Positions 25,079 through 26,413 of a stretch of 64,000 nucleotides of DNA are shown piece after piece. The translations under genes and the position numbers were made by a program. This DNA is from Nitrosopumilus sp. (lineage in GTDB: Archaea; Thermoproteota; Nitrososphaeria; Nitrososphaerales; Nitrosopumilaceae), in contig OZ242186.1 in NCBI GenBank assembly GCA_965205675.1, positions 928,001 to 992,000 on the forward strand, written 5' to 3'. Every line of letters begins with the position of its first letter. The first letter of the stretch is position 1. The notes beneath the pieces were generated by a model. It saw only the letters and a list, made by a program, of their open reading frames with translations. It made no database searches and had not been told where the DNA came from.

Positions 25079-26413
25079 ATATGTGCCAAAATCAGCTAGG
25101 AAATTAGATGGTACTTGCATTCGTATCAAGAAAGTAAGAAATGCAAACAAACACACTACCCTTCCTGAAAAAAAATATTTGATGTTTGTAGGATTGGATG
25201 TTCACAAGAACTCTGTACAGGTGGCAGCAGTAGATGAGATTGGCAAATTATTATTTAACAAAAAGATTTCCAGTGATTTTTCTGCTATTAGCAAAATTAC
25301 ATCCAAAATTCCAAAGAACGCAAAATATGTTTTAGAGTCATCATCTGTCTGGTATGGCCTTTATAGACACATGACAGACAAATTACATCTTGATGTTATA
25401 CTATCTAATCCATACAACACAAAGATAATAGCATCATCACTCAAAAAGACTGATAAAATTGATGCGTACCATCTTGCAAATTTGCTACGAGGAGGGATAC
25501 ATTGCAGAATCATTTGTGCCAGATCACACAATTGTGCAATACAGACAGCTTGTAAGACATCGACACAAGATTGTGCGCATCATTGTAAAGATGAAGAATT
25601 CCATACATGGTATTACACTACAGGAGGGAATCCATATCAAAGCAACACCATTTTCCTCAGAACACATACGTGCACTTGGAAAATTGGAGAGTTATAGAAT
25701 AGATTCGTACCTACAAAGCATAAAATTTCACAAAAAGGAGGTTGCAAAAATAGATTCCATGATACGTCGCATGGTAAATGATAATCCTGATGTGTGTATT
25801 TTGACATCAATACCTGGAGTTGGACCATACACTGCATTGAGCATATTCTCAGAAATTGCAGAGATTAGTAGATTTTCAAATTCTCACAAGTTATGTGCAT
25901 ATGCAGGGATTGTTCCATCGGTGAGAAATTCTGCAGATACAATACATCACGGAAGAATTACAAAGAGAGGAAGCACCATGCTAAGATGGTTGCTAGTGGA
26001 GGCAATTCATGCACATGTTAGATACGCACCAGATAGCGACATTACAAAATTTTATAATCGCATTAAGAAAAAGAGAGGGACCTCAAAGGCAGCAGTTGCT
26101 GCTGCATCAAAGTTATTGCGTGTCATATATTGGATGCTAAAAGAGAGGAGAGAATTTATTCAATGTCATCAATAATTTGTAAAACATTACAGTTAGGAGT
26201 TTGGCCGCGTTTTCACATTGAGGATGCATAATACCTCGAAACTATAACCGCGGTTTCACCTAATAAATGGATGAAGATGGTACTGGGGGAGAACCCCGAA
26301 TGGATATGTGTCTGGTTTCATCTGTGATTGAAAGTATGAGTGTATTAGCGTAAGCTGTAATTAATATGGCAAAAATACCGACAATAGTTAAAAGGGATTC
26401 ACATGGATATGTG
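25079..26413 (+). mobile_element. IS110/IS1111-type element A, copy 2 (ORFs 25083..25697 and 25459..26175)
   Basis: Near-identical to 657..1991; ATATGTG at both ends; same frameshift. Confidence 0.93.
26176..26406 (+). ncRNA. Putative bridge/seek RNA region of IS110 element A, copy 2
   Basis: Stem CCGCG/CGCGG encloses loops TTTTCACAT and AACTATAAC around the GAGG/CCTC hairpin; second stem GATGAA/TTCATC encloses GATGGTACT and ATGGATATGTG. Confidence 0.7.

Follow-up and report, generated by a model that had tools for sequence, protein, structure and literature searches.

How does an insertion sequence (IS) choose its site, and is the choice written in the non-coding DNA behind its transposase gene? 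The question is raised by a locus in the archaeon Nitrosopumilus sp., lying in a stretch of 64,000 nucleotides (nt) of GenBank assembly GCA_965205675.1 (contig OZ242186.1, positions 928,001 to 992,000 of the forward strand; this whole stretch is the window, and coordinates refer to it). The element concerned, which we call famA, is an IS110-family insertion sequence of the IS1111 type, 1334 bp long (25075-26408, plus strand), and an initial annotation made from the letters alone had described behind its gene a set of stems and loops that resembled the guide of a bridge RNA. Our analysis supports that description in most respects, and we put the probability at about 0.85 that the 3' non-coding region (26176-26408, core 26190-26330) encodes a bridge (seek) RNA in which two internal loops would guide the recombinase. 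The same 2.01-Mb genome, whose archaeal nature is borne out by full-length matches to archaeal SSU and LSU rRNA models, carries two sister families, fam68 and fam72, of about 68% and 72% DNA identity, and both enter the argument below. The features to which we refer are as follows.

25069..25074, plus strand: AACCAT, the first 6 nt of an interrupted fam68 left end; left target and AT core of the insertion studied here
25075..26408, plus strand: IS element famA, starting AACCATATGTGCC and ending GATTCACATGGAT; eight full copies at 98.7-100% identity
25083..26175, plus strand: transposase gene in two frames (25083-25697 and 25459-26175), with a GTG start inside the left end and its stop at 26175
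26190..26330, plus strand: putative bridge/seek RNA core with two stem-loops; match to covariance model R1 at 101 bits
26210..26219, plus strand: target loop, 5' strand, TTTTCACATT; TTCACAT (26212-26218) complements the top strand of the right target ATGTGAA
26238..26249, plus strand: target loop, 3' strand, GAAACTATAACC; AACTAT is left target plus core, AACC the first 4 nt of the element
26277..26284, plus strand: donor loop, 5' strand, ATGGTACT; ATGGT complements left-end positions 2-6 (ACCAT)
26298..26315, plus strand: donor loop, 3' strand, GAATGGATATGTGTCTGG; ATGGAT is the last 6 nt of the element, and the ATGTG that follows is right target
26388..26393, plus strand: TTAAAA box in the right end, the candidate TATA box of a putative circle-junction promoter
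26397..26408, plus strand: right end of famA, with the subterminal repeat ATTCACAT and then the terminal GGAT
26409..26612, plus strand: rest of the interrupted fam68 left end; ATGTGAA (26409-26415) is the right target, and an IS630-like element cuts the remnant at 26612
662..1995, minus strand: second famA copy in the window, with its RNA region at 740-880 (minus strand), inserted in the left end of a fam72 element that is cut off by the start of the window

The element and its target site

The boundaries of famA were set from a sister-element empty site and from unoccupied sister left ends. Ten full copies of fam72 are present in the genome; fam68 has three full copies and, in addition, one interrupted copy and the fragment that adjoins the famA copy studied here. 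The empty site of fam72, CCAAT|AATTACAA, fixes its left end as AACTATATGTG, and the true empty site …AATCCAAT|AATTACAATTG…, which has a second paralogue near g1629500, shows fam72 to begin AACTATATGTGAAT and to end …TTCACATGGAT, with no duplication beyond a shared AT between the empty and the occupied site. Unoccupied fam68 copies read GT|AACCAT ATGTGAATAAACAACG. It follows from the empty site and the unoccupied left ends that famA begins and ends as listed above and that it has inserted after the sixth base of a sister left end. In a first boundary model, TAACT counted as fam72 flank, the core was ATA, and g815086 and g1667529 were paired as states before and after insertion; this model was dropped, since the true empty sites put AACT in the fam72 left end, and these two loci are independent insertions into paralogous targets.

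With these boundaries, the eight full copies, accompanied in the genome by truncated ones, share one arrangement. A 6-nt scar precedes each of them (AACTAT in five, AACCAT in three); the eight and one interrupted copy have the right end GGAT|ATGTGAATAA and a left start after AACYAT; and the sequence that follows the full copies continues as a fam72 left end in seven and as a fam68 left end in the studied copy. The initial annotation had named insertion at sites unrelated to the loops among the outcomes that would speak against a guide, and all eight full copies lie at AACYAT^ATGTGAATAA in a single orientation. The sequence ATATGTGAATAA occurs 21 times in the genome, always as an IS left end. 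Nine of these occurrences are occupied by famA, being placed behind a famA right end, and ten of the twelve sites without famA read AACY-AT-ATGTGAATAA. The target site is thus AACY-AT^ATGTGAA (for instance AACTATATGTGAATAA; that of fam72 is CCAATAATTACAA), and its only occurrences in this genome lie 6 nt into the left ends of the two sister families, so that famA stacks in front of them, in one orientation and without target duplication.

This site revises the target of about AACYATAACC-AT-ATGTGAA that had been proposed at the outset. Its right half, ATGTGAA, stands, and its left half does not, the empty site and the ten unoccupied sister left ends giving AACY-AT^ATGTGAA; no unoccupied ATAACC-AT-ATGTGAATAA preceded by AACY exists in the genome, which removes ATAACC as a flank. 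The loop segment AACTATAACC (26240-26249), read initially as the left flank of the element, is correspondingly divided: its AACT and AT are left target and core, and its AACC matches 25075-25078, the first four bases of the element. Because AACC belongs to the element, the loop carries the left junction as it stands after insertion and not the naive target.

To the left of some famA copies (G000:C1 near 63664, 566142 and 1407689) the scars are themselves stacked, as AACTAT-AACCAT-AACC… or AACCAT-AACCAT-AACC…, which points to repeated insertions at one position, as if famA also entered its own left end. The contigs of four public DNA runs contain neither a circle junction nor a join across the empty site, and such contigs drop rare forms. 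One loose contig end of 8 nt, TTGTAACC, before 26407 fits a locus without famA, and it is too short to count.

The putative downstream RNA region covaries with flanks and ends

The transposase is of the expected kind. PF01548 (DEDD_Tnp_IS110, 3.3e-14) and PF02371 (Transposase_20, 4.8e-23) are found on the two famA frames, the intact fam68 transposase reaches 251 bits with the model NF033542, 'IS110 family RNA-guided transposase', for which the cut-off is 140, and the intact sister transposase aligns end to end with IS621 (E 8.7e-12) and ISCro4 (E 7e-12), both of solved structure; the IS110/IS1111 assignment made at first sight is supported. Behind the famA stop lie 233 nt of non-coding DNA (26176-26408), and the anatomy described for this segment can be read from it directly. 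In stem 1, CCGCG (26205-26209) pairs with CGCGG (26249-26253); a hairpin is formed by GAGG (26220-26223) and CCTC (26234-26237); and in stem 2, GATGAA (26270-26275) pairs with TTCATC (26317-26322). The loop strands are likewise where they had been placed, including AACTATAACC and TTCACAT at the positions given above and the 11-mer ATGGATATGTG at 26300-26310, which recurs at the right junction (26403-26413). Such repeats are not expected by chance: ATGGATATGTG occurs four times in the window, twice per famA copy, where 0.09 occurrences are expected, and AACYATAACC also occurs four times (821-830, 1992-2001, 25069-25078 and 26240-26249) where 0.22 are expected, and in neither case do any of 100 shuffles reach four. 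The minimum free energy fold (ViennaRNA) of the 3' region gives the two stem-loops as described, each with an internal loop.

The structure is conserved well beyond famA. The 3' regions of famA, fam68 and fam72 align, and sequence changes such as GGGG/CCCC, GAGA/TCTC and GAGG/CCTC leave both stem-loops intact. Covariance model R1, built from nine sequences of this genome (139 positions, 25 pairs), finds 30 copies in the genome. Counting this genome in each case, it matches 13 of 101 related genomes and 11 of 151 genomes of the class. In the latter sample, 80 genomes of its own family gave nine matches, across several genera, three genomes of a second family gave one, and 67 genomes from ten further families gave none; besides this genome, at least G018 and G098 are common to the two samples. 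Among 42 distinct aligned sequences, 92.1% of cells are paired versus 36-47% when the partner strand is slid, and 17 of the 25 pairs show compensatory changes, with none of 500 shuffles reaching any of these measures, although it must be counted against these figures that alignment A2 was fitted to the model and so favours them. In stem-loop 1, MAFFT and cmalign alike displace famA by two columns, and its loop strand was read from the fold and set by hand. Within famA itself, the eight copies have no variable site in 26159-26418 versus 33 variable columns in the first 1092 (up to 26158), a difference with P about 0.001 by simple arithmetic if changes fall evenly.

The strands of the loops follow the DNA outside the element. 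For the right flank, the 5' strand of loop 1 of each aligned match was compared with the 18 nt after the right-end motif, 10 of the 50 rows being dropped where the motif or the loop strand was unreadable. Over 20 distinct guides, the mean longest exact reverse-complement match is 6.45 nt with a guide's own right flank versus 3.71 nt with the flanks of other families, and the observed sum is reached by none of 100,000 permutations. The longest matches are 10 nt (fam72, L018 and L021) and 9 nt (L034), and the guides concerned are AATAATTACAA (fam72, 11/11 with the empty site), ATCCCAAAAT (L018), AATTACCCTT (L021) and AGTTGTCTG (L034). On the left side, the five bases that precede the last four of the target-loop 3' strand were compared with the left flank in eight families; they agree at 35 of 40 positions, and among 40,320 permutations the identity pairing alone reaches this value. 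Seven further families (L017, L018, L021, L028, L051, L053 and L054), in which the inverted-repeat method did not find the left end, fall outside this test. The last four bases of the same strand equal, or nearly equal, the first four of the element (AACC in famA, AACT in fam72, AATT in L014).

The donor loop varies with the ends of the element in the same manner. In 20 of 27 distinct combinations its 3' strand contains the terminal six bases of the element (6/6 match), at the same position in 19, through five covarying states (ATGGAT, ATAGAT, ATGGGT, ATGGCA and AAGGTA), and its 5' strand complements left-end positions 2-6 through four (ATGGT/ACCAT, ATAG/CTAT, ACGG/CCGT and ACAAA/TTTGT). These results agree with the initial proposals of a bridge-like or seek-like RNA downstream of the transposase and of a division of labor in which one loop would read the target and the other the ends. 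We also note that left-end positions of about 27-36 (25102-25111, AGATGGTACT) repeat the donor-loop 5' strand (26275-26284) in the same sense, and that where the donor loop differs from family to family the repeat differs with it (AGATGGTACT versus AGATAGCAT). The codons in which it falls specify LDGT/SDSI in the N-terminal extension of the transposase described below.

Relatives in other genomes extend the series. In G039, a famA-like copy stands directly before a fam68-like element, with a guide-target match of 9 nt. The independent genome G217 has 20 copies, in which one family matches its flank over 10 nt in three of four copies and another over 8-9 nt in all four. At loci L059-L077 of G217, guide variants that differ by one base, …GAGTTT and …GACTTT, are found at CTCTA and GTCTA flanks respectively in most copies, which looks like natural retargeting by a single base, with three exceptions.

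In the mechanism that we propose, a DEDD/serine recombinase bound to the RNA would join the excised circle (…CACATGGAT|AACCATATGTG…) to AACY-AT^ATGTGAA, the donor junction reading …CACATGG-AT|AACC… and the target having the form LT-xT|RT. The target-loop 5' strand would pair with the top strand of the right target ATGTGAA, and the 3' strand, which has the sense of left target and core (AACT-AT), with the bottom strand; the continuation of the latter into AACC, the first bases of the element, would match the recombination product, as a handshake-like extension. In the donor loop, the 3' strand would present the sense of the last six bases ATGGAT, and the 5' strand would pair with left-end positions 2-6 (ACCAT). 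Of the two copies of the core, the right one is AT and the left one may be AT, GT, CT or TT, which suggests that exchange occurs just after the core. The production of the RNA and its binding by the protein are steps that we infer, and the chemistry is modeled on IS621 and on IS1111-family elements.

The right end of famA also has signs of an archaeal-style circle-junction promoter for a leaderless mRNA. If GTG 25083 is the start codon, 8 nt of the left end precede it, and in a circle junction the TTAAAA box would sit at about -29 to -24 from this GTG, the predicted leaderless start falling 22-23 nt behind the box. That region is the usual place of an archaeal TATA box. In the other families that we read, including the most G+C-rich RNA match (G+C 0.60), there is likewise an A/T box, with its end 14-15 nt short of the right terminus. 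In a tandem of famA and a sister, the box is about 6 nt closer to the GTG of the sister than in the circle junction. The open reading frame (ORF) opens at a GTG at left-end position 9 in seven of eight families (including L057, L056, L040, L011, L015 and L016) and begins with a Lys/Arg-rich extension of 35-45 residues, after which come the usual MxVGxDxHK start and the DEDD domain. Bacterial relatives are said to form a junction promoter (PMC11187229).

Frameshift, spread and rival explanations

Several observations weigh against the interpretation of this region as a working guide RNA of an active element. The folding energy is not better than that of shuffled sequences (z -0.96 for 243 nt, z -1.57 for 146 nt), and we abandoned it as evidence. 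An Rfam scan of 24000-27500 with E up to 10 returned chance-level matches only, and there was no RNA run among the public runs found to contain the stretch, the single run with a guessed RNA label having a share of 0.07, so that the reading treats transcription, RNA ends and processing as predictions. Not all loops fit their flanks: a third guide variant in G217, with ten copies, matches its flank over 3-6 nt, three of these copies fitting the sister variant better, and relic copies fit poorly, with own matches of 3-6 nt at d78, d1517, L013, L026, L015 and L009/d1720 and similarly poor fits at d61 and d505. The idea that the extension of the donor-loop 3' strand is a general match to the right target was rejected, as it holds in famA and fam68 only. 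Finally, one surplus G in GGAGGG (25494-25496) breaks the famA frame at LLRGG|YIAE, and since it is present in all eight full copies the genome may hold no active protein of the famA family.

The frameshift is not a property of famA everywhere. The famA-like copy of G039 reads GGAGGA, in frame, and the base is missing at 25494 in contigs of three public DNA runs (depth 81.4/81.4, 39.8/39.8 and 9125/42946); judged by these sequences, the famA transposase is intact in related strains. In this genome, two famA copies have further 3-nt deletions at the frameshift spot. Two copies of fam72 carry an intact ORF of 371 residues.

The shared extra G is also the starting point for an account in which the RNA module is real but famA, having made one or a few true insertions, is non-autonomous in this genome and travels as a passenger. 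A composite of 2.7 kb, famA plus fam72, would be moved by the fam72 recombinase and RNA, which could act on it because the outermost 6 nt of fam72 (AACTAT) remain in place, as does its own right end, or would be spread by homologous recombination between IS copies. We hold this to be entirely possible, if short of probable. Seven of the eight famA copies lie in fam72 left ends, the composites sit at fam72-type targets (xxAT|…|AATTAYA), and fam72 has the intact ORFs just mentioned. Moreover, the five fam72 copies linked to famA (G000:C1 441791, 928663, 997782, 1502499 and 1666190) share six variants confined to the first 235 nt (alignment columns 106, 109, 112, 229, 234 and 235) that the five solo fam72 copies do not have, so that part of the spread of famA may be passive, and some of its eight copies may have arrived as passengers or by recombination and not by their own insertion, which again counts against an active element; the pattern suggests composite spread or co-conversion. 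This account is less at ease with the copies in fam68: the studied copy lies in that other sister family and the G039 copy, in another species, before a fam68-like element, which indicates that independent insertions matched to the RNA have occurred. The stacked AACYAT scars point to repeated insertion at one position, and the related-strain contigs and the G039 copy are free of the extra G. A bolder version, which we consider rather unlikely, makes famA a hyperparasitic IS, its guide tuned to the conserved left tip of sister elements, with the host element moving the composite and a famA promoter switching on the host transposase. If this were so, the intact terminal 6 nt of the host would let its recombinase and RNA still move the 2.7-kb composite, which would explain eight frameshifted copies, and the TATA-like box in the famA right end, about 20 nt before the start codon of the host element, could switch on the very transposase on which famA depends.

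Two further explanations dispense with the guide altogether. The internal copies of ends and flanks could be protein-binding repeats or relics of older nested ends; repeated protein sites are common in IS ends, nested IS fragments fill the locus, and the folding energy gives no significant sign of an RNA. We think this very improbable nonetheless, as the stems keep their pairing through the compensatory changes in 17 of 25 pairs, the loop strands vary with flanks that differ by family and lie outside the element, and the two strands are of opposite sense, as in known seekRNAs (PMC11187229). Slimmer still are the chances that the RNA is an antisense regulator of the neighboring sister transposase, acting through pairing of UUCACAU with the AUGUGAA around its GUG start. 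The sister ORFs do open at a GTG within ATATGTGAA, exactly what the loop strand complements, but in other families the same loop strand complements unrelated chromosomal flanks with no IS start codon and shows no covariation with start regions, and the second loop and the match to the left flank would be left unexplained.

The surroundings of the locus are rich in mobile DNA. An IS cluster includes a DDE_Tnp_4 transposase (22146-23069), a DDE_Tnp_1 transposase (23692-24642, minus strand) and the IS630-like gene (26695-27755), a split gene with separate HTH_33 and DDE_3 ORFs. Directly left of the interrupted fam68 end, the 12-nt unit TACTTGCACTTG is repeated perfectly in tandem, in 3.2 copies (25032-25069). 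Elsewhere in the window, R1 gives a weak match at 9906-10043 (plus strand, 47.5 bits); its first stem-loop is degenerate, and it is probably what remains of another member of the family. A hybrid element, L010 (G000:C1:754374-755691), joins a left end and gene of famA type to a 3' RNA region of fam72 type with a different guide, and contigs of three runs leave famA for a fam72-type region at 26157; both may have arisen when members of a tandem recombined, or when one RNA module was exchanged for another.

Relation to known RNA-guided recombinases

We regard the famA RNA system as a well-supported addition to the known RNA-guided recombinases. The principle as such was established earlier with bacterial IS110 and IS1111 elements, and what is contributed here is its extension, with a fully readable guide code for IS1111-type recombination, to an archaeal clade without an Rfam model. 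More than 20 distinct guide variants and their flanks, in about 15 genomes, make up a natural reprogramming series that shows which loop positions read the target, the core and the ends. The small size of the element (1334 bp, with a 333-residue core protein) and the intact natural alleles in relatives make the system directly testable. Two aspects are unusual, namely the use of sister-element tips as target, with the resulting head-to-tail stacks and 6-nt scars, and the signs of an archaeal-style circle-junction promoter.

Among the closest counterparts are the IS1111 elements with a seekRNA (ISEc11, ISKpn4, ISPst6 and ISPa11; Siddiquee et al. 2024, PMC11187229), which like famA have a DEDD transposase of about 330-350 residues, an extended stretch of non-coding DNA behind the gene, and insertion in one orientation per site without target duplication, and in whose RNA the complement of the top strand also lies 5' of the match to the bottom strand. 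The ends of famA may also be compared with their subterminal inverted repeats, which are followed by terminal extensions that are short and asymmetric. Unlike these elements, famA has an archaeal host, takes the left end of sister elements as its target, and is known from sequence alone. Its repeats are also shorter, with 8 bp in the sister families (ATGTGAAT/ATTCACAT) and 5 bp in famA (ATGTG/CACAT) versus a usual 11-13 bp, although the 8 bp fall within the range of 7-17 bp given for the IS1111 group (PMC11208160). With the boundaries set here, famA has a left terminal extension of 6 nt (AACCAT) and a right one of 4 nt (GGAT), which compare with 7 or 6 and 3 in the seekRNA elements (PMC11187229), a count that depends on how the core is assigned.

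The bridge RNA of IS621 and the IS110 group (Durrant et al. 2024, PMC11208160) resembles that proposed for famA in having a target and a donor loop, each reading both strands around a short core, and the handshake guides of IS621 (Hiraizumi et al. 2024, PMC11208158) resemble the AACC of famA in that guide extensions match the product. The IS1111-group elements carry their RNA in the right end, where one is predicted in 93% (Durrant et al., PMC11208160). The recombinases are homologous, E being 8.7e-12 over the full length for the intact sister transposase. Against this common ground, famA departs from IS621 in several ways: the RNA is in the right end and not the left, and the order of the guides is reversed; the donor core is AT, with which several targets share only the T (CT, GT and TT on the left side); and the extension that matches the product is on the sense strand of the target loop. 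As for the choice of target, IS4321/IS5075 is reportedly an IS1111-family element with a specific target in the end of another mobile element. In famA, the target is the left tip of a sister IS of its own family, and consequently homologous elements come to be stacked head to tail.

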